64,000 nucleotides of DNA from a virus (taxonomy: Duplodnaviria; Caudoviricetes), in IMG/VR virus record IMGVR_UViG_3300015608_002132, positions 32,001 to 96,000 of that record. One strand, written 5' to 3'. Made by a program: the position numbers and the translations under genes. Shown here in pieces: positions 1 to 14,365 of the stretch; position 1 is the first letter of the stretch, and each line of letters starts with the position of its first letter. Under the pieces are notes generated by a model. That model had not been told where the DNA came from, made no database searches, and saw only the letters and a list, made by a program, of their open reading frames with translations.

Positions 1-363
1 GATGCACATTGGCTTCGCTGTTGCAGCGACGGCGCTGTTGCTATGGTTGGCAAGTACAGCTTGCGCAAGCAAGCGTGCTGCACGTAAGCCAGCCGTACCG
101 TGAATCTCTCGCTTGCACCATCGATGGTTGTATTCGATCTGGCTATGAACCTCGTCGGCATGGGCCTGACAGTACACACCTCCGTCTTCGTCATGCGGGC
201 CTTTGATCTGGTGTGTGGCGCCTTCAGAACAGGTATACTCACCAGTCTCTTCATTATAGTTGTACGTACATTGGAGGAGATAACAGGTCTTGAGCACCTG
301 CTCGGCCAGTGCGCGCGGCTGGATGACGTCGTCAGTTGGTGGTGTTGATGATGATGTTGGCAT
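1..363 (-). CDS. hypothetical protein, runs off the left edge (Cys/His cluster, possible Zn binding)
   Basis: Manual translation from ATG 363 stays open to base 1 (MPTSSSTPPTDD...QCTYN...YTCSEG...VYCQAH). Absent from the ORF track because no stop lies in the window. Confidence 0.6.
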   Translation of the reverse strand, partial: MPTSSSTPPTDDVIQPRALAEQVLKTCYLLQCTYNYNEETGEYTCSEGATHQIKGPHDEDGGVYCQAHADEVHSQIEYNHRWCKREIHGTAGLRAARLLAQAVLANHSNSAVAATAKPMCI

Positions 364-384
364 TGGTTTTTATGTACCGTCCCT

Positions 385-867
385 CTATTGGCCAATACTA
401 ACTTCCGTTATCATATCACCAACGATTGGCCGAACGTAGTAGACGTCTACATCTCCGAGCAACAGGATCTTGATATACTCCGCGCGCTCTTTGATGGATT
501 GCGCTAATGGCTCACGACCGTTGATGTCACCATTCATGTTTTTAACGGCCTTAGCCACTTGCGCAACAGTATCATAACCCAGGTACATGAACGGCGTGCC
601 AGCATTCAGTAGTTTGTGATGGGGGAGCTGAATCAGATCGATGAAATACTCGCACTCGTTGCCTTTTGCTGTGCGGTAACGGCCTCGCGGCGTGTTGATC
701 TTGTAGAGCCCGCCAGGAACCATGAAAGCGTGGAGCCCATTAATGTCTGTACTCCAACGCGGGTCGGCGCCATGCACGCGGACGTGCTCTTGCGCAGACA
801 TGCTAGTGCTGTATGGGTGGGGTCCAACAATATATCGACGACCGTTGCTCATGCCCTCTTGTAGCAT
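385..867 (-). CDS. hypothetical protein
   Basis: 160-aa ORF packed co-directionally with its neighbours. Confidence 0.65.
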   Translation of the reverse strand: MLQEGMSNGRRYIVGPHPYSTSMSAQEHVRVHGADPRWSTDINGLHAFMVPGGLYKINTPRGRYRTAKGNECEYFIDLIQLPHHKLLNAGTPFMYLGYDTVAQVAKAVKNMNGDINGREPLAQSIKERAEYIKILLLGDVDVYYVRPIVGDMITEVSIGQ

Positions 868-882
868 GCCGTGATCTAGAAG

Positions 883-1260
883 TCAACCGCAGCGAACAAC
901 CTGAACTTTTGGCGTACGGCCGTTGTTTGGGTTTGTTACGGCGCCGATGGATATCCAACCATACAAGATGTCAGACGCGTCATCGGTGTTGGCGGTCATG
1001 ACTTTCAACCACATAAGTGGGCATTGGTCGTCGATATCATATTTCACGGCAACATCTAAAACCAGAAACTTTGTGCCAACATTGATCGCTGGCCACGATA
1101 GCCACGACTTTTCGCCCGGAAGGTCATCAAATCCTGGTGCGTCAATATCACTACACGTGAGTTTAATCAGCACTGATAGGTTTAGCGTGCACAGATGCCC
1201 TACGAGCGAAGCCAAGTGAGGCGGCACAACGTCATCGTCGCAATGATTGTCATCGACCAT
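883..1260 (-). CDS. hypothetical protein (small beta-barrel/SH3-like)
   Basis: ORF 883..1308, likely start MVDDNH at 1260; FLVLDV...WLKVMT...GWI pattern. Confidence 0.55.
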   Translation of the reverse strand: MVDDNHCDDDVVPPHLASLVGHLCTLNLSVLIKLTCSDIDAPGFDDLPGEKSWLSWPAINVGTKFLVLDVAVKYDIDDQCPLMWLKVMTANTDDASDILYGWISIGAVTNPNNGRTPKVQVVRCG

Positions 1261-1511
1261 ATGACCACCCAGCCATCTGTAATAACCTCCGCGTACGCTG
1301 GCACCCACCCAATGTCACCAAAGTCCGTTAATACTCTCATACACTCGCAGCCTGCACAGCAGCGAGTTTCCAGCACCAGCACCTTGGCGTTTGCCGCGAC
1401 TGATGGCAACTTACCAGAACTCAGTATGATACTAGCTCTGTCATTCAGAGCATATGTCTGCATGCGCAGCAGCTGCCCGACTTGCTTATGTGTGATTATC
1501 GCTGCTGTCAC
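1200..1511 (-). CDS. hypothetical protein (SH3-like)
   Basis: ORF 1200..1559 trimmed to GTG 1511 because its 5' part overlaps tRNA-Ser; VLVLET...MRVLTDFGDIGWV. Confidence 0.5.
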   Translation of the reverse strand: MTAAIITHKQVGQLLRMQTYALNDRASIILSSGKLPSVAANAKVLVLETRCCAGCECMRVLTDFGDIGWVPAYAEVITDGWVVIWSMTIIATMTLCRLTWLRS

Positions 1512-1532
1512 GTGATCGCTGCTTTGGCTGGG

Positions 1533-1622
1533 CGGAGGCGGCAGGAGTCGAACCTGCATGGCCGGGTCTTAACCGGCCCACTGTTTAGCAAACAGTTACC
1601 TTACCATTCGGAACACGCCTCC
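1533..1622 (-). tRNA. tRNA-Ser(GCT)
   Basis: Acceptor GGAGGCG/CGCCTCC, anticodon arm ACTGT-TTGCTAA-ACAGT, long variable arm, T loop TTCGACT, G73. Confidence 0.93.
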
Positions 1623-1626
1623 GAGG

Positions 1627-1684
1627 CTTCGACCGCAGGACTTGAACCTGCAACGGCGCCGCTCTACCATTGAGCTAGGTCGAA
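1627..1684 (-). ncRNA. tRNA-like RNA lacking the anticodon arm (58 nt)
   Basis: TTCGACC TA GCTC-AATGGTA-GAGC GGCGCCGTT GCAGG-TTCAAGT-CCTGC GGTCGAA G: perfect acceptor, D and T stems, with only 9 nt between D and T arms. Confidence 0.8.
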
Positions 1685-1801
1685 TTGGGTGGTGAGTTCA
1701 TGTTAACGGAACGAGCTCACCGAACTACCGGGAAGAATGACCTTTAGGCGCATCTCCTTCATCGCCCGCTCTTTGTTTACCCTCGGAACGGGACGAGGTT
1801 G

Positions 1802-1872
1802 CTCTGGGACTTGGATTTGAACCAAGATGACCTGAGTCAGAGTCAGGCATCCTACCATTGAATGATCCCAGA
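1802..1872 (-). tRNA. tRNA-Gln(CTG)
   Basis: Acceptor TCTGGGA/TCCCAGA, CCTGA-CTCTGAC-TCAGG, T arm CTTGG-TTCAAAT-CCAAG. Confidence 0.93.
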
Positions 1873-1946
1873 AACAGCGCAGCGGAAGCCGCGCTTAACA
1901 AAATATGTGCTTATGTGGGACAACCACCCCCTTTCACATTATTGTT

Positions 1947-2043
1947 TGGAGGAGAGTGTGAGATTCGAACTCACGGACGAGTGTTTTGCGCCCGCCTTCG
2001 GTTTTCAAAACCGACACCATAAACCTAACTCGGTCAACTCTCC
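1947..2043 (-). tRNA. tRNA-Ser(TGA)
   Basis: GGAGAGT/ACTCTCC, TCGGT-TTTGAAA-ACCGA, long variable arm, encoded CCA. Confidence 0.93.
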
Positions 2044-2099
2044 ATGTGTGCGTTATGGCTTGCTTACTTGACCGACCATACTATCTTCGGCCACGGGTG

Positions 2100-2495
2100 T
2101 CAAGGATAATAATTGTCGAGGTAGTACCGCATCCAAACCTCATATTCTGGCAACCACTGCTCCGGGCAGCCGGTGGCGCAAAACCCATGGGTTGATGCCC
2201 AAACCCACACAAAGGGGTTCCAACACCCACTGTCGTCAAGCAGCCCCATTGCTATCAGTCCATCGACTTCGTCGGCATCAAGATCACAGATATCAATCTG
2301 TCCTGTTGCCAGCTTGGCAATCAGATCACGGTCGACCGGCGACATATAGTCAAGCAACACAGCCAGGATGTGACCATATAGGCGAGCTGTTGTTCGGCAT
2401 GTCCGTGCAACAGAGCCAAGGTATTCCACATCGATTACCCGTTGCTTGAGCAAGTATATGGTAATCCGATCTAGGCAGTAGTTGTTGTCGGCCAT
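2100..2495 (-). CDS. hypothetical protein
   Basis: ORF 2100..2624 trimmed to MADNNY at 2495 because the upstream part is tRNA-Lys. Confidence 0.65.
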   Translation of the reverse strand: MADNNYCLDRITIYLLKQRVIDVEYLGSVARTCRTTARLYGHILAVLLDYMSPVDRDLIAKLATGQIDICDLDADEVDGLIAMGLLDDSGCWNPFVWVWASTHGFCATGCPEQWLPEYEVWMRYYLDNYYP

Positions 2496-2510
2496 GATAT
2501 GTGTTTGTTG

Positions 2511-2583
2511 TGGGTCCGGAGAGAATCGAACTCTCATTTCAGCAGGGTAAGAGCCTGGTGTGATACCATTATACCACGGACCC
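2511..2583 (-). tRNA. tRNA-Lys(CTT)
   Basis: GGGTCCG/CGGACCC, CAGG-CTCTTAC-CCTG, GAGAG-TTCGATT-CTCTC. Confidence 0.88.
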
Positions 2584-2591
2584 CATGGTCT

Positions 2592-2755
2592 GACGCATCT
2601 CCATGCGTCTTTGGTGTTTATCAACTATCTTGCCGGTCAAGAGAGCTATGAACGACCAACTTCACGCCCAGATGACCGGTTACGGTCGACAACACTGAGA
2701 CTGTGGCACTTACGCGCTAGAGTCTCCTGCAACCAGCGTCTCCGTCGGCTGCATC
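2592..2755 (-). ncRNA. candidate structured RNA/leader upstream of tRNA-Lys
   Basis: Four consecutive hairpins directly after a sigma70-type promoter, two capped by GNRA tetraloops (GAGA, GUAA). Confidence 0.5.
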
Positions 2756-2762
2756 GTAGAGG

Positions 2763-2791
2763 AGGATACGATGGCTCGTTGTGGTTGTCAA
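2763..2791 (-). promoter_or_regulatory. sigma70-type promoter
   Basis: TTGACA-N17-TATCCT. Confidence 0.7.
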
Positions 2792-2811
2792 GGGATTTGT
2801 TTTGTTGCCCG

Positions 2812-3144
2812 TCAATCAATCCACGTGATCTTGTTGCCGAGGCCGTCACACATCTTGCAGTTCGCAAGAACTGCACCAGTGCCTCGACACGCCTTGCATT
2901 CGGGGTCTGGGTTGTCCTCGCCACCACCACATGCTTTGCACCCGGTCCAGTGCCCAGGAACAACGCTTGGCCCACCAGCCAGATCACTTATGCACCAATT
3001 GCACTCCTCGACCGTAAACTTCCGCGGAGAAGGCAGATCACGTGGCATAACCGGATGTAGATTGCACCGGTCGCACGGCTTGTCTGACACCACACGCCGT
3101 ACGTGGAGTCCGGACGTACAAGAGCTGACAATGAAAAACATCAT
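2812..3144 (-). CDS. DnaJ-type cysteine-rich zinc finger protein
   Basis: CKACGGG, CKACRGTG, CKMCDGLG repeats plus further CxxC pairs. Confidence 0.7.
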   Translation of the reverse strand: MMFFIVSSCTSGLHVRRVVSDKPCDRCNLHPVMPRDLPSPRKFTVEECNWCISDLAGGPSVVPGHWTGCKACGGGEDNPDPECKACRGTGAVLANCKMCDGLGNKITWID

Positions 3145-3205
3145 TGTTTGACCCTAGCATGGCTAGCTGCCCAAAGTCAAGGGAGCAATAGTGCGACCTT
3201 GGTTG

Positions 3206-3649
3206 TTATTCAGCCACGGCGCTAGCGTTGTCTTGTGCGTGTTGGAGGTGTAGTCGGCGCAGCATTGCAATCTCTTCCTTTGCCTTCTGCCTCTTCTCCT
3301 TGCGATGTTTGGCCTTCAACTCCTGGGCTGCGTGGTAAGCTGCCCGCTCCTCTGTGCGCCGACGCTCAATCTCTTCTTCGGCGGCTATGATGTCTTTGCC
3401 TGCTTTGATCATAGCCGCCACGTCCTGTGGCTGTTTGATCTCCAGAACGGCAACCCACCGGTCATAGTATTTGGTTGACTCAGCATACCGCACCAGTGCA
3501 TTGTATTCGTCGTCGGTTACTTGCATACTACAGTGAGTCATAATGGCCGACAATGCCTTATGTGGCACAGAGCCATGGCTATATGAGTCGGTGCACTCGA
3601 CTACCAGCACGGTTCTTGTTGTTGGCTTGCTGTTATCTTCTGTTGGCAT
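3206..3649 (-). CDS. hypothetical protein with charged coiled-coil C-terminus
   Basis: 147-aa ORF; apparent paralog of the upstream gene. Confidence 0.7.
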   Translation of the reverse strand: MPTEDNSKPTTRTVLVVECTDSYSHGSVPHKALSAIMTHCSMQVTDDEYNALVRYAESTKYYDRWVAVLEIKQPQDVAAMIKAGKDIIAAEEEIERRRTEERAAYHAAQELKAKHRKEKRQKAKEEIAMLRRLHLQHAQDNASAVAE

Positions 3650-4067
3650 GTGTTTTACTTGCCGCTGTCTTGTTTTTCAAGATCTTCAATCTCACGGCGA
3701 AGTTTCTGAAGGCGCTTGGACTTTTTCTCCCGCTCAGCTTTGAGCCGTGCTTGTTGGAGCTTTTATCCAGCGCACGCTGGATTTCTAGGCACCGCATGCC
3801 ATCTTGCAGAAGTTGTTGAAACTCTTCTGTTTGCGGAGGGACCAGCACCAAAAGTCGAAGCGTGCTATCATTGTCACAAATCGCTTTAAGCCCAGCCAGC
3901 TGTTCGTCTGTGACAGTGTGCACTACTGTATCATCGCCTATGATTTTGGTTGGCAAGTATGTGCTAATTGTATCGTATTCACCGTCGATGTAATGTTTTT
4001 GTCCGCGGACTACAATAACCTTGTGCATTGTTTCTTGCTCAGGGTGGCTAGTCATATTGTTACTCAT
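3633..4067 (-). CDS. hypothetical protein, paralog of 3206..3649, probably frameshifted near 3761
   Basis: Start trimmed to 4067 (just after tRNA-Leu); the coiled-coil tail continues in another frame. Confidence 0.6.
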   Translation of the reverse strand: MSNNMTSHPEQETMHKVIVVRGQKHYIDGEYDTISTYLPTKIIGDDTVVHTVTDEQLAGLKAICDNDSTLRLLVLVPPQTEEFQQLLQDGMRCLEIQRALDKSSNKHGSKLSGRKSPSAFRNFAVRLKILKNKTAASKTHANRR

Positions 4068-4069
4068 AG

Positions 4070-4155
4070 TGCCCAGGGCGAGACTTGAACTCGCACGCGA
4101 CTCACGTCGCAAGAGGGTTTGAGCCTCTCGTGTCTGCCGATTCCACCACCAGGGC
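4070..4155 (-). tRNA. tRNA-Leu(CAA)
   Basis: GCCCTGG/CCTGGGC (one T-T mismatch), AGAGG-CTCAAAC-CCTCT, long variable arm. Confidence 0.92.
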
Positions 4156-4171
4156 TTGGGTGTATGTTCGT

Positions 4172-4200
4172 ACTGTACTTTATGGTTGCGTAAGTGTCAA
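4172..4200 (-). promoter_or_regulatory. sigma70-type promoter for tRNA-Leu
   Basis: TTGACA-N17-TACAGT. Confidence 0.7.
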
Positions 4201-4209
4201 GTGGTCTGG

Positions 4210-4686
4210 CTAAGACTTGGGTGGTTTGCTGGGGAGTGCCTTTTCCATCGAATATGCAATATCTTCGCTGCGCCTGATGACCTCGTAGACTGCTTGTGAC
4301 CATTGCTGGTCTGTTAGGCCAGCTGGTGCCTTCTCCATGTAGGACATTCTTGCCACTCTTTGAATCCATGAGGAAACGATATAGTACATTACCATTTCCG
4401 ATGGGGAGCGTTTGTCTTTTGAATGTGTTGTCCTGCTGCTTGGGCTATCTGTGGACATTCCAACATAAACCCTGGCGGCATATAGCTTGCAGCCTTGCGC
4501 GTGCCAGTTTCCATCGATGGGCTCATCAGTGTCCCACCAGCACTCGGAGCACTCTGGGCATTGAACAGTCTGATCACACGCCTCGTACGCGTACTGGAGC
4601 ACATGCTTGAGATGTTCCGTGAGCTTGGCGATATGTTTATCGGCGTCAATTGACTCGTTTGATAACGCTGCATCTGTGTTGTTCAT
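4210..4686 (-). CDS. hypothetical protein (CxxC...HxxxC)
   Basis: Start MNNTD at 4686 overlaps the upstream stop (ATGA). Confidence 0.6.
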   Translation of the reverse strand: MNNTDAALSNESIDADKHIAKLTEHLKHVLQYAYEACDQTVQCPECSECWWDTDEPIDGNWHAQGCKLYAARVYVGMSTDSPSSRTTHSKDKRSPSEMVMYYIVSSWIQRVARMSYMEKAPAGLTDQQWSQAVYEVIRRSEDIAYSMEKALPSKPPKS

Positions 4687-4910
4687 TGTTTTGTGCTTCT
4701 CACAAGGCTCCATACCCCTGTTATGATAGCCGCCGCCGAAGCCAATGCCAACGTCGCAACGCCAACAAAGTATATCTCGTTTATCAAGCCATACAGCCAG
4801 AGGTTTGCGCAAGTAATTGCAACCCCGGTCACCACAGCGCCGGTCGCAACCACTAGCGCCACAGCCAGCAAACAGCCTCTAGTAATCCTTGCCATGGCGT
4901 TGTTTTCCAC
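4683..4910 (-). CDS. small two-TM membrane protein
   Basis: Two long hydrophobic segments in 75 aa. Confidence 0.6.
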   Translation of the reverse strand: MENNAMARITRGCLLAVALVVATGAVVTGVAITCANLWLYGLINEIYFVGVATLALASAAAIITGVWSLVRSTKQ

Positions 4911-5598
4911 AAGGAAACGGCATGCGCATGTGTTCGAGCAGTGGTATCAGAGCTCTTGGTGTTGCGACAAGCGTGCATGACACGGTATATGGTGCGCCCG
5001 TAATGTTGAATCTCTCAGCCTGTTCAACACCGAAGTAAGTGCACGAGCAAACCTCCATCCACCCATACGCCTGGGTCATCACTTCGATGTCGGTCTTCTT
5101 GATGTGATATCCTGGGTCGTTTGTTGTGTCAACGTACCTAAGCTGCCCAACGTGTACACCAAGCAGTCCAAACACTTTGGTTGTGTTTGCTAAGCACTCG
5201 TCGAAGCTATATCTCGCTGCATCGTCGCTGGTAGCGAACACGAACTGCTCAATCTTCCGAAACTCAAGAAGACTCTTCCATCCGTCCAGCGTGTCTTCGT
5301 TTCTGAAACAACTGTTGTTTGCAAAATACCGGTATTGCTGTTCTGACGCGTCAAGCCGTGACCCCTCGAACAACTCCAAGATGCCTTGTTCGGCAGAACC
5401 GGCCAAAGCCAAGCTGTCGCTAATCTTGAACGTGTGTTCCCATGTCACGGCCGCTTGGCGCTCGATGGTTGAGCGTTTGACGAGTGAAGGGACCGACAAG
5501 TAAGTCCATCCACGTCCAAACAAGAAGTCTTCGCCGGTGCGTAAGACTCGGCGCTCAAGTTGAGCATATGCCGGGTCTCGTGGTTGAAATGTGGACAT
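4879..5598 (-). CDS. seryl-tRNA synthetase-like catalytic core lacking the N-terminal tRNA-binding arm
   Basis: Class II motifs: VPSLV (motif 1), GSAEQ (TxE loop), CFRNE...EFRKIEQF (motif 2), DIE, EVCSC, ATPRAL (motif 3); only 239 aa. Confidence 0.85.
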   Translation of the reverse strand: MSTFQPRDPAYAQLERRVLRTGEDFLFGRGWTYLSVPSLVKRSTIERQAAVTWEHTFKISDSLALAGSAEQGILELFEGSRLDASEQQYRYFANNSCFRNEDTLDGWKSLLEFRKIEQFVFATSDDAARYSFDECLANTTKVFGLLGVHVGQLRYVDTTNDPGYHIKKTDIEVMTQAYGWMEVCSCTYFGVEQAERFNITGAPYTVSCTLVATPRALIPLLEHMRMPFPCGKQRHGKDY

Positions 5599-5785
5599 GT
5601 GGTGTCAAGCCTCACGCTTTGGAATAACCGGACCAAGTACCATTGTGGGTGTTGCAACAGTCATCACCACCGATCGATCTGGCACTTCTAGTGAGCCGGG
5701 ACCGTCCGTGTTGCTATGACCGTTCGGTGGTGGTGTCCCGCCGCGAAGTAACCTCTGTTGCCGCTCCCCCAGAAGCGCGTCAGGA

Positions 5786-6149
5786 TCATCTGCGGCGCCG
5801 TTGTTTGGACGGGCGGCAGCAGTGTGCTGCTCGCGCCCAGCGCTCATTCAAACAGTGATCGAAGTATTCTAAAGCTAGCGATTTCCCATTTCCCGTTGGC
5901 GCCGACGCTTCTTCCTCCATTGCGACCTTAGAACGTAGCTGAGCAAACGCTACGAGATCATTGATCGACAGGCCATGGGCCATGCTTTGCCGCTACGCCA
6001 GCGCTGGCTCCAACAATATCTGCCAACTCGACAAGGAGCATGAGTGTCTGACCTTGCTGGATGGCATCCTCTGCCTCCTCAAGCTCCTCGCGTACCTTGG
6101 ATATCTCCCCGTAGACGCCGCGAGTAATGATGTTTTTGTGAAAGCCCAT
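5786..6149 (-). pseudogene. MazG-like/all-alpha NTP pyrophosphatase split by a 7-bp tandem duplication
   Basis: KVREELEEAEDA...VELADIVG motif; GGCCATG occurs twice at 5971-5984; removing one copy joins ...AKHG to LSINDLVAF. Confidence 0.7.
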
Positions 6150-6180
6150 GCGCGCATGGTATAGGCGCATGGACAGGAAG

Positions 6181-7437
6181 TCAAGCGCGCTTGCCGCCGA
6201 CCTTTTTGGCGCGCTTCTCTAGCTTGCCGAGAAGCGTTGATGTGACAAGGGCGACAATTTTGTCCTTGTCGCCATAGGTCCATGGTATCTGACGTGCCGA
6301 GTCGCTGTCGGCTTCCGTGCCACCGGCCTCATTATCGGCGCCGTTCTCGCCGTCATTGTTGTTTGCTGTCGCAGTTACGATTTCCTCGTCCGGGACGAAC
6401 TCGTACTGCTTCATGGTCTGGCCCATACCAGAACCGCCAAACGTTTTATTTGGCAAGTCTTTGTCGATGTCTTTGGGAAGGTACTTGACCTTCTTTTGTT
6501 GCTGTTGCTTCTTGGCGGTCATTGCTGCTTCCCTCAAATATCCGGTGCTGTTGCTGTAAATATCCACCGAATCCCCAGGCACGTGCTTGACAGGGTTTGC
6601 CAAGTTGCCCATGTGACCGACGTGAGTCGGTACGTCATCTGGTTCTTTCAATTTCTTTTTAACGTCTGTTTGTCCCCACTCTTTCTTGATCCAATTAACC
6701 GGCTTGACAATGTGGTTTGACACAAGATCACGGTTATCTTTGCCTCTGTTGCCTTGAGTGGTTTCCTTCCATCGGTTTTCGGTGCCTGCACGATCGTTGT
6801 TAAGTTTTAAGTCATTGCTGTCATCGAGTGACTTGTTGCGCGGGTCATCGATGTTCGTGTCTGTGTTATGACCGGAACTTAGTGAGAGATTGTGTTCATC
6901 ATCATACCTGCCAAAACCGAATGGCTTTCCCCTGTCGCCTTCTCTGGGCGACGGCAGGAGATTTGGGCTGACATATCTCTCCTCATCACCAGCGTCAACA
7001 TCACGGTCCTCGTCTTCTGGGACGTGATCCACTTTGTTAACCAAAGCGTTGTGGCGAGGGAGACCGGGAAGGTCGCGGTAGAGGATATCTGACGGCGCCC
7101 TCTCCTGAACATATGTGAAATAGGAGGGCTCACTCGTCTCGGTGTCGAGCAGCTCTTGGCGAATCTGATCTTCCAGCGGAAGTAGGTGCGGTTTGTCGTC
7201 AAACACACCTGGGGATTCCAGCGATCCGTACTGTTCGCGATCACTGTCTTGTTGGGCATCTATTGCCGGAAGTAGCGGGTCATCCTCGTCAGTTACGTCG
7301 GCCAGCCCTGGCCACATCTCTGAACTTGCCAACTGCTGTCTGCCACCAAACCCGTACGGGCCGCCATGGAATGTTCCAGCCCCAGAGAAGTCGCCCTTGT
7401 TTTCTTTGCGTACGCGCGCTCTACTTGAGAGTACCAC
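6181..7437 (-). CDS. acidic low-complexity protein, possibly internal head protein
   Basis: 418 aa, D/E/P/G-rich; TAGTTA lies 5 nt before the GTG start. Confidence 0.7.
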   Translation of the reverse strand: MVLSSRARVRKENKGDFSGAGTFHGGPYGFGGRQQLASSEMWPGLADVTDEDDPLLPAIDAQQDSDREQYGSLESPGVFDDKPHLLPLEDQIRQELLDTETSEPSYFTYVQERAPSDILYRDLPGLPRHNALVNKVDHVPEDEDRDVDAGDEERYVSPNLLPSPREGDRGKPFGFGRYDDEHNLSLSSGHNTDTNIDDPRNKSLDDSNDLKLNNDRAGTENRWKETTQGNRGKDNRDLVSNHIVKPVNWIKKEWGQTDVKKKLKEPDDVPTHVGHMGNLANPVKHVPGDSVDIYSNSTGYLREAAMTAKKQQQQKKVKYLPKDIDKDLPNKTFGGSGMGQTMKQYEFVPDEEIVTATANNNDGENGADNEAGGTEADSDSARQIPWTYGDKDKIVALVTSTLLGKLEKRAKKVGGKRA

Positions 7438-7445
7438 GCGGTTAA

Positions 7446-7730
7446 CTAGACAATTCGCTTGTTGGGCCTTGACTTGATCATGGAGTTGAAGTAGGAACCA
7501 GCCGAAGGTGCATTCACTAGAGCATCGTAGATGTCGCCGGTAATACCGGTATACTCGTACGTGCGGCCGTTCTTAAACGTCACTGTGAGCGTGTTCGTCA
7601 CCGTATCGTATGTCGTGGTTAGAATTGTTGATGAAGTTGTAAAGTCTGTGGTCTTTGTGCGCGGCCCACCGAGAAATGTCGTCATGTCCAGCTCCAGTTG
7701 CTTGTCCGGTTGCTTGTTTCCGTTAACCAT
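7446..7730 (-). CDS. KTSC domain protein
   Basis: SSTI...YD...LTVTFKNGRTYEY...YDALVNAPSAGSYFN. Confidence 0.92.
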   Translation of the reverse strand: MVNGNKQPDKQLELDMTTFLGGPRTKTTDFTTSSTILTTTYDTVTNTLTVTFKNGRTYEYTGITGDIYDALVNAPSAGSYFNSMIKSRPNKRIV

Positions 7731-7735
7731 GCCAT

Positions 7736-7764
7736 ACTGTACAGCGCGATGAAAAACCTGTCAA
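7736..7764 (-). promoter_or_regulatory. sigma70-type promoter for the KTSC gene
   Basis: TTGACA-N17-TACAGT. Confidence 0.7.
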
Positions 7765-7790
7765 GCTGTATGACATCACGGACATAATCG

Positions 7791-8153
7791 ATGGCGACGG
7801 ACATAGAACTCGGCAAACGATGCGAAATTGCTAGCAAAGCGCATCAGAACAATCATCATATACATGTCGTTGTTTATCATGATGACATCGAAAACATAAT
7901 CAAACTCCGTTCATCTATTGTCGGCGGGTTTCTTCCACCGACATTGACGACCTATAGTTTAATGACCCAGACTAGCCTACTGCCAAAAGGCACAACGGTC
8001 AGGTCGGCAAACGACAAGTTCGTGCTTATCGACAAGAAAATAGATGAGCACGGAAACTGGTATTATCAGTGTCTATATACTGACGACTATGGCTGGATCA
8101 TTGGTCAGCCTTCAGTTTACCAGATAACAGAATGCAAAGAGAACTTGGAGTAG
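7791..8153 (+). CDS. hypothetical protein (start may be 7962)
   Basis: ORF fills the gap; C-terminal half looks beta-rich. Confidence 0.5.
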   Translation: MATDIELGKRCEIASKAHQNNHHIHVVVYHDDIENIIKLRSSIVGGFLPPTLTTYSLMTQTSLLPKGTTVRSANDKFVLIDKKIDEHGNWYYQCLYTDDYGWIIGQPSVYQITECKENLE

Positions 8154-11314: not shown

Positions 11315-14300
11315 TTAATACACCCATCCAAACAAACGCCGCGTTTCCATCTCCATCTCGGCGGCCTCTTTTGATACGCCGTATGGCAGTTTCTTGCCAG
11401 CGACTTTTCGGTTTACATCATTGAAGCCGCGGCTCATTCCGGCCAACATTGACATGGCCAGCATTTTGTTGCTCTCTTGCATGTGAAGATAGCCGCCTTG
11501 GGATGCTGATGGCGTGAACATTTGTAGTCCAATGGCTGCGGCCATGATTAAATCATCATGTTTATGTTTTAGTGACTGTCCACGCTTACCAGTCCAGATA
11601 AAAGTTTCCATTTGCTCTACTAGACGCAATGAGTAGAACTTTATCTGTCGGTTCCGAATTACTTGCTCTAGGTTCTCAAGGATCTTCTCGCGATTTTTTT
11701 GAGAAACCGTATAACCAGGATATACCTCGGCCTTCTCTTCCGGTGTCATTCCAAGCATCTTCTCTAGTACCTCTGGGTCGTAATAAAGGTTTGGATACTC
11801 GGAGTTCCTGAGTTGTGTTGCTGTCGCAAGTCCAACAGAGTTCAATTCCGCAACAATGAGTGCGTTGTTATAGCGCCTACCGCACTCCACCATAAAATCA
11901 GCATACTTGTCCGGTGGAATCTTACCCATATACTCCGCTGCAACCTCCGACTCGTTCGTATCGAAGATATGGAATGCCGAGTAGTCGGCCGCATCTCCTC
12001 TTGCCACGTCAGCGGCCAAAACGTACTTGTGATCAGATTGCGGCGTACGCCAGATGTGCATATCGCGTTGAGCCTGTATCTTACCGGCCGGACCTGTAAA
12101 CCCAATAGCTGGGAACGAGAGCTGCCTGACGAAGTCAATGGAGTCTTGCGGGAAGAATGTTGCCGAGCTCCCCTCAAAACCACAGTTTAGTTCCTGTGCA
12201 ATACCTCTAGCGTCGAGAGCGCGGCACTGTTCCTCAAACCACTTGTCATCGCGCTCCGGGTGAACCGTCCAAGGCAGTTTAATTCCGTGGAATCCGTTCT
12301 TGCCAACGCCCTTGCAGTGCTGTCCTACCTTGCCCTGTTCCCATTCGCCGGTCTCTGCGCCTTGCCAAAGTTGATAAAAAAAGTTCTTTCCACTAGGGGT
12401 CTGATGGCCGAGAAACTGCTCGTATATTACCGAGTGGTCCCACTGCGGGTCCGACGGGTCATTTGGGAGTGAAAAATCCATTGTTTCTGACTCCGACTCC
12501 ACGATGGCTTTAATACGCTTCCATACAACATGTGTCGACAGAAGATAATCCGGTACGGTTGTACTTGCCAATTCAGCTAGCCGCTGCAATTCTGCACGAG
12601 TCGGGCTAACGTAACCGTTGGTTATCCGATGAATAGACCAGTTGTACTTCTTAGAAAAAGCAACCGCCGACATTCCAAAAGAGTTGAACGTTTCTCTAAA
12701 CCACACTTGAGCGTATGGCAATGAAACAAAACCATCATTGTTTGATCGTTTAAGCAGAGAAGTTTTTGCCGCGTGAGCCTGTTTGCGCGCAAATCCAAAT
12801 CCAATTTTCTCGAAGAATTTCTTAGCTTCCCAGTGCTCAGCGTGCAGTTGATATGAGTCGTGCCTAAAATAATTCTTCTTAAGATATTTGTTGAGATCAT
12901 TGATCTTACAGCATTGCAATCCGGTTAAGATGCCAAAATTACTCAGAATCGCTCTTGTTTGTTTTGCCAGCTCGGGACTTGATGTACACAAAGAAACGCG
13001 ATGCTTCGATGTAGCAGAGTGTGCCGTGCCATCGCCGTCATACATTCCGCGAACCAGTGCGGCAATCAGCTCTTGTGAGCACTCCAGCAAGCGATCCGGG
13101 ATGCGCTTCTCGTGTGCCTTAAGGCGCAGGTCGAATCCAAGCGACATCATAAACTTTACAAACGATACTGATGAGATGTAATAATGCAAGTTATCATAGG
13201 TTTTAATAGATAATCCATACTTTCTTGATAGATTACCAAGTATCTCAGATAAATCATCGCCACATGTTATTGTAAGCGTCGCACCAACAATTCTACCATC
13301 TTCATGATATTTTACATAGCATGAACCTTCAGCTATATAAAGACCAAAGAAATACATCAAGTCTTCTGTTAATTTCTGTGGTCTGATAAATTTCCGCTTT
13401 TCTTTCGCGGCATACTCGATCACAGGCAGATCGGCCAAGTCATCATTACTGCCCCATACGTCCTGTCCGTAGTATTGCGCGACGTAATGTCGACCTGGAA
13501 TCAAGTCTTTGGACTCGATCCATCTTGGTTTCTCCAGAGGAGTTGTCGTATCGTATGCAAACAGTTTGTGGTTCTGGCTGACCTCGATTGATCCAACAGT
13601 AGTCTCAATGATTCGCGTTGGAACACGACCGTTGTTCCAAACAACGGTGCCGGTTCGCAGCTTGTTCATCCCGCAAACGCTGTATGGAACATCGTGAGTG
13701 TGTGAAGTTTTCTGACTTTGGTTTGCCGCCAGAAACGATCCGATTTTCTTTATTCCACGGCTCGTGTATACCAATGTGTTTGGATTTACACACGAGAATA
13801 TAATAGCTCTGCCACCTGTAGATAATGTGCTGTACAAGCCAAGCCACAGCTCGGAGAGGTTATCAATATGGGCGGCCTCGTCGATAACAAGAAGGCTTAG
13901 AGCCTGGGAACGACCGGCGTCACCAGACGTAGGGATTGCCGTGATCGTTGATCCGTTGTTGAATTTGAGATACTTGACCGACTCGGCTTCTGGGTCGGTG
14001 AGGCCAAGCATTGACAGCATCCAGGCTGGCAGCATCTTAAAGGCGACGCGAATCTTTTGCAGCATCGCCTTGCCCGTCTCCAGCTTTGTGGCCATGAGAA
14101 GGATGTTGGCATCACGCTGAAACATCGCCATCCAAAGGCAATAGGCAGATGTCGTGGTTGACAGGCCAAGCTGCCTGGACTTCAAGACGATGTTCATCTT
14201 GTAGTCGAGGAACGACTCAATACACTCCTCCTGGAACGGGTACAACTCAAACGGCAGACGGCCTTTGGTTGGGTGCTGAATATACAGGTACTTCTTGATG

Positions 14301-14365
14301 AAGTAGATCGGGTTCTCCCCGCACTTAAGGATTTCTTCTAGTTGTTCTTTTTTGTTAAGGGCCAT
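11315..14365 (-). CDS. terL: terminase large subunit (T4 gp17-like) with intein
   Basis: KSRQLGLST Walker A, LLVIDEAAH Walker B, LAADVARG and HDDLIMA nuclease motifs; about 552 aa after splicing. Confidence 0.96.
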   Translation of the reverse strand: MALNKKEQLEEILKCGENPIYFIKKYLYIQHPTKGRLPFELYPFQEECIESFLDYKMNIVLKSRQLGLSTTTSAYCLWMAMFQRDANILLMATKLETGKAMLQKIRVAFKMLPAWMLSMLGLTDPEAESVKYLKFNNGSTITAIPTSGDAGRSQALSLLVIDEAAHIDNLSELWLGLYSTLSTGGRAIIFSCVNPNTLVYTSRGIKKIGSFLAANQSQKTSHTHDVPYSVCGMNKLRTGTVVWNNGRVPTRIIETTVGSIEVSQNHKLFAYDTTTPLEKPRWIESKDLIPGRHYVAQYYGQDVWGSNDDLADLPVIEYAAKEKRKFIRPQKLTEDLMYFFGLYIAEGSCYVKYHEDGRIVGATLTITCGDDLSEILGNLSRKYGLSIKTYDNLHYYISSVSFVKFMMSLGFDLRLKAHEKRIPDRLLECSQELIAALVRGMYDGDGTAHSATSKHRVSLCTSSPELAKQTRAILSNFGILTGLQCCKINDLNKYLKKNYFRHDSYQLHAEHWEAKKFFEKIGFGFARKQAHAAKTSLLKRSNNDGFVSLPYAQVWFRETFNSFGMSAVAFSKKYNWSIHRITNGYVSPTRAELQRLAELASTTVPDYLLSTHVVWKRIKAIVESESETMDFSLPNDPSDPQWDHSVIYEQFLGHQTPSGKNFFYQLWQGAETGEWEQGKVGQHCKGVGKNGFHGIKLPWTVHPERDDKWFEEQCRALDARGIAQELNCGFEGSSATFFPQDSIDFVRQLSFPAIGFTGPAGKIQAQRDMHIWRTPQSDHKYVLAADVARGDAADYSAFHIFDTNESEVAAEYMGKIPPDKYADFMVECGRRYNNALIVAELNSVGLATATQLRNSEYPNLYYDPEVLEKMLGMTPEEKAEVYPGYTVSQKNREKILENLEQVIRNRQIKFYSLRLVEQMETFIWTGKRGQSLKHKHDDLIMAAAIGLQMFTPSASQGGYLHMQESNKMLAMSMLAGMSRGFNDVNRKVAGKKLPYGVSKEAAEMEMETRRLFGWVY
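12401..13792 (-). mobile_element. LAGLIDADG intein (464 aa) ending in His-Gln
   Basis: IIFS|CVNPNT ... GLYIAEG ... RGMYDGDG ... FLGHQ|TPSG; locally more AT-rich. Confidence 0.93.

Follow-up and report, generated by a model that had tools for sequence, protein, structure and literature searches.

Truncated paralogues of the aminoacyl-tRNA synthetases (GluQRS, EpmA, HisZ, AsnA and the amino acid:[carrier-protein] ligases) have each revealed unexpected chemistry. GluQRS/YadB, EpmA/PoxA, AsnA and HisZ are synthetase cores that have lost the tRNA-selection domain and kept amino acid activation (HisZ retains binding only), and to our knowledge none of them is derived from seryl-tRNA synthetase (SerRS) or has an obligate nucleoside triphosphate (NTP) pyrophosphohydrolase partner. 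The amino acid:[carrier-protein] ligases, which are of methanogen-type SerRS origin, acylate the phosphopantetheine arm of a carrier protein, and PDB entry 9qof is an arm-deleted E. coli SerRS. Such ligases are said to have been described by Mocibob et al. in 2010 as SerRS homologues of Bradyrhizobium and Agrobacterium. In metazoan mitochondria, SerRS2alpha is an arm-less SerRS which is inactive alone and needs the coiled coil of SLIMP (PMC10570016). Here we analyse a window of 64,000 nucleotides, bases 32001-96000 of the 113-kb IMG/VR viral record IMGVR_UViG_3300015608_002132, in which a minimal SerRS-type catalytic core is encoded beside a small HisE/MazG-like protein, referred to below as the partner. 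We consider it reasonably likely that the two constitute a two-part viral enzyme with a non-canonical acceptor, probably of the RNA/tRNA 3'-end or nucleotide type. The two genes are placed as follows:

4879-5598, minus strand: minimal SerRS-type class II catalytic core of 239 residues, the long form of phrog_4806 (Pfam, PHROG, PDB and AlphaFold2)
5958-6170, minus strand: truncated 5' part of the partner gene (phrog_6408), 70 codons, covering helices 1-2 with EExxE...ExxD (PHROG, AlphaFold2 and alignment)

The motifs by which a preliminary description, made from the letters alone, had recognised a class II synthetase in the 239-residue open reading frame (ORF) are all present (GSAEQ, CFRNE, EFRKIEQF, DIE, EVCSC and ATPR). 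The core matches Pfam tRNA-synt_2b (PF00587) above the cut-off (1.1e-10) and phrog_4806 over positions 4-186 of the 190 in the profile (E 1.5e-24), a family which carries the database label 'histidyl tRNA synthetase'. An identity as histidyl-tRNA synthetase (HisRS) or HisZ is nevertheless not supported, since the best matches by PDB sequence, fold and NCBIfam are all SerRS. SerRS accounts for all 24 PDB sequence matches, with residues ~168-397 of the T. thermophilus enzyme at the top, and the top NCBIfam match is serS (TIGR00414), at 52.9 bits against an equivalog cut-off of 301.65 bits, which is not reached. When the AlphaFold2 model, built from an alignment of 40 sequences (predicted local distance difference test, pLDDT, 94.3), was submitted to Foldseek, the best 50 matches were all SerRS catalytic domains, with template modelling (TM) scores of about 0.8 and E-values of about 1e-17. 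Both the PDB sequence matches and the fold matches place it closest to bacterial, organellar or eukaryal-type SerRS, and judged from sequence and model it is a bacterial-type SerRS catalytic domain.

The three class II motifs, namely P37 (motif 1), C97-F-R99-x-E101 (motif 2) and P214-R215 (motif 3), do not vary among 40 family members and line up with those of canonical SerRS. The TxE-type motif takes the form G67-S68-A-E70, with Ser replacing Thr, and E117, E182, S185 and T209 correspond to serine- or ATP-binding residues of the canonical enzyme; the residues of the serine pocket (G67-S68-A-E70, E117 and T209) are all invariant in the family. Among the positions for ATP and serine, P37, R99, E101, F113, K115, E117, D170, E172, E182, S185, T209 and R215 are invariant in the family, and most of them stay so even once the divergent short forms of 190 residues are added to the alignment. 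On comparison with a 95%-identical relative (L016), 26 synonymous and 7 non-synonymous changes were counted, and because the ratio of non-synonymous to synonymous rates (dN/dS) is 0.07 the gene is under strong purifying selection. As the ATP- and serine-binding residues are all retained, the core is very probably a functional enzyme in which formation of seryl-adenylate is preserved. The family comprises 92 homologous clusters at 90% identity, with lengths of 170-261 residues and on contigs of up to 471 kb. With 190-240 residues, its members rank with the smallest class II cores of active appearance, and the 239-residue long form is the version nearest to true SerRS. As a separate observation, on a 485-kb phage contig (L013 5921-6513) the core is split by a frameshift into two overlapping ORFs, next to an intact partner.

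On alignment with full-length SerRS, the core begins at the motif-1 helix and thus the N-terminal coiled-coil arm and about 65 further N-terminal residues (~165 in total) are absent. The motif-2 loop, which touches the acceptor stem in the T. thermophilus SerRS complex, is 5 residues shorter than in SerRS, a β-hairpin stretch of 8-9 residues and the C-terminal ~25 residues are also missing, and the arginine equivalent to T. thermophilus R271 is variable in the viral family. The absence of the N-terminal coiled coil from this protein, pointed out in the preliminary description, agrees with the restriction of the best PDB match to the catalytic domain. A search for a separate gene encoding the arm (PF02403) gave no match above the cut-off in the 113-kb record or in 5 complete genomes of phages carrying the core, and the possibility, raised beforehand, that another gene supplies the missing part found no support in these genomes. 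Sub-threshold PF02403 matches of coiled-coil type (13-17 bits) in four phage genomes were regarded as noise; two of these lie 3-5 kb from the module (muut gp079 and BpSp gp021). The loss of both the arm and the long motif-2 loop, which serve selection of tRNA-Ser, means that the core cannot be a stand-alone housekeeping SerRS, in line with the earlier suggestion and with its score far below the serS cut-off. Such a role is also unlikely because the natural arm-less SerRS subunit is inactive alone (PMC10570016).

What distinguishes this family is its constant association with the partner. The long-form core lies just downstream of a phrog_6408 partner on the same strand in all 23 non-redundant loci examined, that is in 11 of 11 viral loci (the window, Bacillus phages G and BpSp, and 8 IMG/VR contigs), 6 of 6 further metagenome loci and 6 of 6 loci from a scan of a genome collection (185,579 species genomes). 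The long form is essentially viral, since all six loci of the genome collection are on metagenome-assembled genomes or phage-like contigs. When all ORFs of the 11 viral loci were compared against each other, the core and the partner were the only gene families common to all. Their genes abut or overlap in most loci; elsewhere they are separated, by an HNH endonuclease gene in L011, by two small ORFs in L021 and by a radical SAM gene in L008-L010. Co-occurrence of the synthetase with a MazG-like gene, which the preliminary description had put forward for examination across phages, thus extends to every locus examined.

A tblastn search with gp286 of phage G detected the partner in 108 phage records, including those of 51 Escherichia phages (phi92-like Justusliebigvirus), Caulobacter giant phages and Erwinia Henunavirus as well as Brevundimonas phages, Xanthomonas phage XacN1 and Citromicrobium phage RXM. 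Every such locus that was opened contained the partner followed by a very divergent core of 190 residues (or a fused one of 284 residues), annotated either as 'histidyl tRNA synthetase' or as 'seryl-tRNA synthetase'. The pair is hence kept in four short-form lineages (phi92-like coliphages, Caulobacter giant phages, Erwinia phages and Citromicrobium phages), whose cores share only ~25% identity with the long form. Two metagenomic proteins are natural fusions of opposite order, P0124 (partner-core) and P0216 (core-partner). Among longer fused relatives, no protein of at least 420 residues was found at E<=1e-10, and most matches of 280-350 residues in the representative search were set aside as ordinary SerRS or fragments. 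In addition, three metagenomic gene calls (P0115, P0116 and P0123) consist of the partner's N-terminal half followed in frame by the last third of the core. They represent either deletion variants or chimeras of the assembly, and P0116 comes from the window's own lineage. Adjacency that is kept in otherwise unrelated neighbourhoods, along with fusion in both orders, is strong evidence that the two proteins act together, probably as a complex. A complex prediction for the phage G pair in 2:2 stoichiometry scored 0.00 in a run without controls and is evidence neither way.

The partner itself is a small protein, its homologues in other phages having 75-105 residues with an invariant His, a GELSK motif, EExxEAxDA and ELxDxxGA in common. 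The MazG-like gene reported upstream of the core on the same strand is confirmed by a phrog_6408 match of ORF 5958-6170 (E 1.3e-19, restricted to positions 2-58 of the 83 in the profile) together with sub-threshold matches in Pfam, where PRA-PH (HisE) is seen in 9 of 10 partner members (15-18.6 bits against a cut-off of 21.3; best E 0.002) and MazG in 3 of 10. Similarly, a profile search of the PDB with the partner placed HisE 2a7w at the top (E 0.076). The AlphaFold2 model (pLDDT 86.5) consists of three helices, for which Foldseek ranks the HisE structures 2a7w and 1yvw first (probabilities 0.99 and 0.94, root-mean-square deviation 1.4-2.0 Å over 55-57 columns), with MazG structures next in rank; at 0.6 or worse the E-values are weak, as is usual for so small a protein. 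The acidic residues E22, E23, E26, D29, E42 and D45 (phage G numbering) are invariant and are kept in the 70-residue stump of the window. Although the individual lines of evidence are weak, they are consistent, and the combination of sequence matches, fold matches and acidic metal-binding motifs suggests that the partner belongs to the all-α NTP pyrophosphohydrolase superfamily, nearer to HisE than to MazG. Of 10 aligned members, 9 are acidic (isoelectric point about 4.5-5.5, the remaining one 9.3). The partner is unlike the SerRS arm and gave no match to carrier-protein families.

In the genome under study the partner gene is interrupted, at the following positions:

5971-5984, minus strand: 7-bp tandem duplication, CATGGCC x2 (comparison with relatives; read assemblies)
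5958-5960, minus strand: premature stop of the partner after the duplication (shifted frame)
5836-5838, minus strand: second frameshift, one extra G (GGG) (comparison with relatives)
5605-5957, minus strand: rest of the partner gene, out of frame, with helix 3, a C-terminal tail of low complexity, the second frameshift and a 3-bp insertion (HMM match in that frame, 2.5e-5)

Three 95%-identical relatives, contigs of different samples, encode a core of 97% identity preceded by an intact partner of 177 residues (e.g. P0232), whose gene ends 6 nt before the core; the C-terminal extension to 177 residues is a trait of the window's lineage. Against these relatives the window carries the 7-bp duplication, the 1-bp insertion and also a 3-bp insertion, so that of the MazG-like gene described earlier only the 5' part is an ORF here, and a genome-neighbour test for phrog_4806 accordingly finds the partner at 5605-6170, though frameshifted. 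In two studies, Logan assemblies (of run X2 at 78x and run X5 at 26x) are identical to the window sequence, and since independent read assemblies carry the duplication, the truncation is genuine and persistent. Both frameshifts are absent from a seawater strain (X9). In a wastewater strain of 2024 (X6) the duplication is retained, and further indels and densely spaced substitutions are confined to the region beyond the premature stop, where the partner sequence appears to be decaying; the first 70 partner codons, with both acidic motifs, and the core stay conserved. A truncated partner beside a strongly conserved core amounts to a natural experiment on the core's need for its partner.

Additional genes accompany the pair in particular lineages. 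In phi92-like coliphages a gene with a YqeY domain, known as a tRNA-binding module of GatB and of some glutaminyl-tRNA synthetases, directly follows the core (Pfam 4e-8), and in CcrColossus gp133 (L025 3233-4084) the short-form core is fused to an N-terminal helix-hairpin-helix domain of the type found in the C-terminal domain of the RNA polymerase α subunit (alpha-CTD; Pfam 3e-6). In a subclade of gut phages, the module has a third member, an uncharacterised radical SAM enzyme of ~250 residues with a CX3CX2C motif, in two arrangements which share 39% identity:

L008 5157-5935, L009 5130-5927 and L010 5136-5927: stand-alone radical SAM gene between partner and core
L030 2010-3005, and likewise L031, L032 and L033: radical SAM enzyme fused N-terminally to the partner domain

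The gene in L008 is split into two ORFs. A radical SAM enzyme as universal third partner was rejected, being absent from phage G, BpSp, muut, CcrColossus, RXM and the window record. The neighbourhoods are otherwise mostly composed of nucleotide-metabolism genes (ribonucleotide reductase, NAD salvage, ThyX thymidylate synthase, deoxynucleoside monophosphate kinase and a PurA/PurZ-like gene). Single loci show a PurA/PurZ-like adenylosuccinate-synthetase gene, convergent and directly downstream of the core, on a 350-kb contig (L022 5684-6997, minus strand), an Apyc1-type anti-Pycsar gene directly downstream of the core (L023 5698-6483) and RtcB about 3.5 kb upstream of it (L019).

A further proposal of the preliminary description was a functional tie between the synthetase and a Ser-biased or armless set of tRNAs encoded downstream. 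The tRNA genes of this part of the window, as given by ARAGORN/Infernal-type calls, and a 58-nt element among them (cluster 1529-2583) are:

4069-4155, minus strand: tRNA-Leu(caa), the first of the downstream cluster
2510-2583, minus strand: tRNA-Lys(ctt)
1947-2043, minus strand: tRNA-Ser(tga)
1801-1872, minus strand: tRNA-Gln(ctg)
1627-1684, minus strand: 58-nt tRNA-like element, probably a remnant
1529-1623, minus strand: tRNA-Ser(gct)

The two tRNA-Ser genes are indeed present, but serine accounts for only two of the five tRNAs (Leu, Lys, Ser, Gln and Ser) and the cluster is not a serine set. Within the fetched flanks of 3-6 kb, tRNA genes are near the module in a minority of loci only (the window, L007, L011, L021 and L028), and tRNA-Ser only in the window and L021. 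The complete genome of BpSp has no tRNA gene and that of RXM only tRNA-Trp; a set of phage tRNA-Ser genes hence does not belong to the module, and the proposed tie is not supported.

Besides the G73 described beforehand, the 58-nt element has a 7-bp acceptor stem and canonical D and T arms, with 9 nt in place of the anticodon and variable arms. Its U1-A72 acceptor stem is unlike the G-C-rich stem (GGAGGCG...) of the phage tRNA-Ser(gct). It is not called as a tRNA, however: no sixth tRNA was found in positions 1-8000 by ARAGORN in bacterial or mitochondrial mode or by Infernal at E<=1, and lowering the calling thresholds gave 97 calls in 8 kb, which we consider noise. Minimum free energy folding gave z = -1.35, so that the energy alone is not significant. 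L029, a relative of 95% identity, has both halves, the 5' one (acceptor and D arm, 5480-5510) lying ~640 nt from the 3' one (T arm and acceptor, 6125-6160), and the insert holds an ORF of 278 residues with weak HNH/HTH signals; Rfam detected no group I intron in this insertion. The element is probably a deletion remnant of an interrupted tRNA gene. Elsewhere in the same viral record, outside the window (G000:C1:2454-2527), a tRNA whose anticodon has four bases (acaa) is called by ARAGORN beside tRNA-Ala and tRNA-Thr.

In the two-part enzyme that we favour, the core would condense serine with ATP to give seryl-adenylate and would form a physical complex with the partner of predicted HisE/MazG fold, which is likely because fusions occur in both orders. 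Serine would then be transferred to a ribose hydroxyl at the 3' end of an RNA or tRNA or, less likely, to a free nucleotide, and the partner would either clear a competing NTP or act as hydrolase on a tri- or pyrophosphate that the substrate itself bears. The place of the pair would thus be in tRNA or nucleotide maintenance or modification and not in bulk translation. Hints of a nucleic-acid or tRNA substrate come from the YqeY gene, the alpha-CTD fusion of CcrColossus and the nearby tRNAs. A more specific version, rather improbable in its details, is that serine is put on the 3' end of a damaged or toxin-modified tRNA from which the partner takes off a blocking pyrophosphate or an extra nucleotide, as counter-defence, or on a nucleotide which is elaborated by the radical SAM enzyme in some gut phages; if true, either acceptor would mean a class of reaction not seen before in class II synthetase cores. 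Several points weigh against this two-part enzyme. Serine specificity and adenylate formation are read from conserved residues only, the partner never reaches the Pfam gathering score and its Foldseek E-values are poor, as for a small protein, and the substrate hints are lineage-specific and absent from most loci. The core of the window is conserved despite its truncated partner, so either the stump of 70 residues still works or the core has a value independent of the partner. Moreover, the nucleotide-metabolism neighbours and the radical SAM enzyme fit a small-molecule product at least as well.

Such a product is proposed in an alternative where the partner makes a monophosphate from an NTP or deoxynucleoside triphosphate and the core ligates serine to the nucleotide or to another metabolite, yielding a seryl-nucleotide, a modified-base precursor, a signal or a decoy molecule. 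The service of MazZ to PurZ and the action of HisE on phosphoribosyl-ATP are models for the first step, and the predicted NTP pyrophosphohydrolase fold of the partner with its catalytic acidic residues intact, the nucleotide-metabolism genes in the neighbourhoods, the PurA/PurZ-like gene abutting the core in L022 and the radical SAM enzyme between the pair (L008-L010) or fused to the partner (L030-L033) are all in keeping with it. That enzyme, however, belongs to one subclade and is missing from the cultured phages named above and from the window record; further, we know of no characterised truncated synthetase paralogue that acylates a free nucleotide and of no modified base in the cultured phages carrying the pair, and we give this alternative only a slim chance. 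We also hold it unlikely that the core is an auxiliary SerRS which dimerises with an arm-bearing subunit, most plausibly the full-length SerRS of the host, although the dimer-interface proline of motif 1 and all catalytic residues are retained and SerRS binds tRNA across the dimer. The host arm would reach over the dimer and hand tRNA-Ser to the active site of the phage subunit, much as in SerRS2alpha/SLIMP, where an arm-less catalytic subunit is active only with the paralogue that supplies the coiled coil (PMC10570016), and the benefit to the phage would be additional serylation of its own tRNA-Ser and that of the host, or protection of this serylation from a host shut-off. Two tRNA-Ser genes downstream in the window and one directly upstream of the module in L021 would suit this arrangement, whereas BpSp has no tRNA genes at all. 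It leaves the obligate HisE/MazG-like partner and the fusions unexplained, and with ~25% identity between short and long forms in phages of very different hosts a conserved interface with host SerRS would be demanding; the shortened motif-2 loop, at the contact with the acceptor stem, is a further difficulty.

A protein acceptor appears very unlikely. In the manner of EpmA/PoxA on elongation factor P or of the amino acid:[carrier-protein] ligases, the core would serylate a protein, possibly the partner itself, at His5, Ser18 or Lys19, which are invariant (phage G numbering). The invariant GELSK motif and the arrangement of an arm-less SerRS homologue beside a small helical protein of ~85 residues recall those ligases, but they derive from methanogen-type SerRS whereas the viral core is of the bacterial type, and the affinities of the partner are with HisE/MazG and not with carrier proteins, with metal-binding residues that a mere acceptor would not need. 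It is hardly credible that the core is a SerRS fragment which was captured and only regulates or binds, as HisZ does, or a decaying remnant functionless in this genome: the dN/dS of 0.07, the invariance of catalytic residues across very divergent members and the breadth of the family (92 clusters, contigs up to 471 kb) stand opposed to the broken partner gene of the window, the frameshifted core of L013 and the in-frame deletion chimeras in metagenomes (P0115, P0116 and P0123).

With respect to its wider setting, the viral record has a CheckV completeness of only about 33%, which suggests that it is a piece of a much larger (jumbo) phage, and the public sequencing runs with the window sequence are mostly wastewater metagenomes. 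A megablast search of the nucleotide sequence against the phage collection gave no match. The order on the minus strand is KTSC gene, 418-residue ORF, partner, core, two small ORFs and tRNA cluster, the remaining members being:

7446-7730, minus strand: KTSC-domain gene, two genes upstream of the module (Pfam 8e-18)
6181-7437, minus strand: ORF of 418 residues without known family (ORF list and family searches)
between the synthetase-like ORF and the tRNA cluster, minus strand: two small ORFs (gene order)

KTSC is regarded as an RNA-binding domain of lysyl-tRNA synthetase in a survey of jumbo phages (PMC7824862), which does not mention the pair. At a distance from the module, an ORF resembling the terminase large subunit (11315-14365, minus strand) has 1016 residues, far above the usual length, and its middle resembles an inserted intein or homing-endonuclease segment in the translation, judged by eye only.

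One genome paper (PMC8953757) contains a routine annotation of the core as SerRS and of the partner as MazG, and our literature searches found no published study treating the pair. What is specific to this window comprises the long form of 239 residues, the verified truncation of the partner, the partner of 177 residues, the radical SAM fusion subclade and the explanation of the 'mini-tRNA'. The family occurs in numerous large phages whose hosts are unrelated and is mislabelled in databases as HisRS or SerRS, and its invariable enzyme partner implies a coupled two-step reaction which is undescribed in the literature found. As phi92-like coliphages of E. coli K-12 carry the pair, the question can be addressed directly by genetics and biochemistry.

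Considering the known systems together, the core resembles SerRS (class IIa; T. thermophilus 1ser/1sry/9qrp and E. coli 6r1m) in its catalytic fold, motifs 1-3, TxE-type motif and serine-holding Glu and Thr, but differs by lacking the arm, the next ~65 residues and the C-terminal tail, and by being always paired with a HisE/MazG-like protein. With SerRS2alpha/SLIMP it shares the nature of a naturally arm-less, catalytically intact SerRS subunit; there, however, the arm is contributed by a SerRS paralogue with a dead active site, whereas no arm-bearing paralogue was found in the viral record or the 5 complete carrier genomes, and what constantly accompanies the core is an unrelated acidic protein of HisE/MazG type with three predicted helices. 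Like the amino acid:[carrier-protein] ligases, it is a shortened SerRS homologue that has no tRNA-binding domain and is encoded next to a helical protein of only ~85 residues, but it is bacterial-type and its neighbour is a HisE/MazG-like protein with enzyme-type acidic motifs. The partner in turn appears to resemble HisE (2a7w and 1yvw), MazG and MazZ in its predicted three-helix fold and EExxE...ExxD motifs, although it is shorter (about 75-90 residues) and remains below the Pfam thresholds. The arrangement as a whole recalls MazZ-PurZ or HisZ/HisG-HisE, where an NTP pyrophosphohydrolase is paired with an ATP-using, amino-acid-related enzyme, except that the companion enzyme in these phages is a class II synthetase core and not PurZ or HisG.

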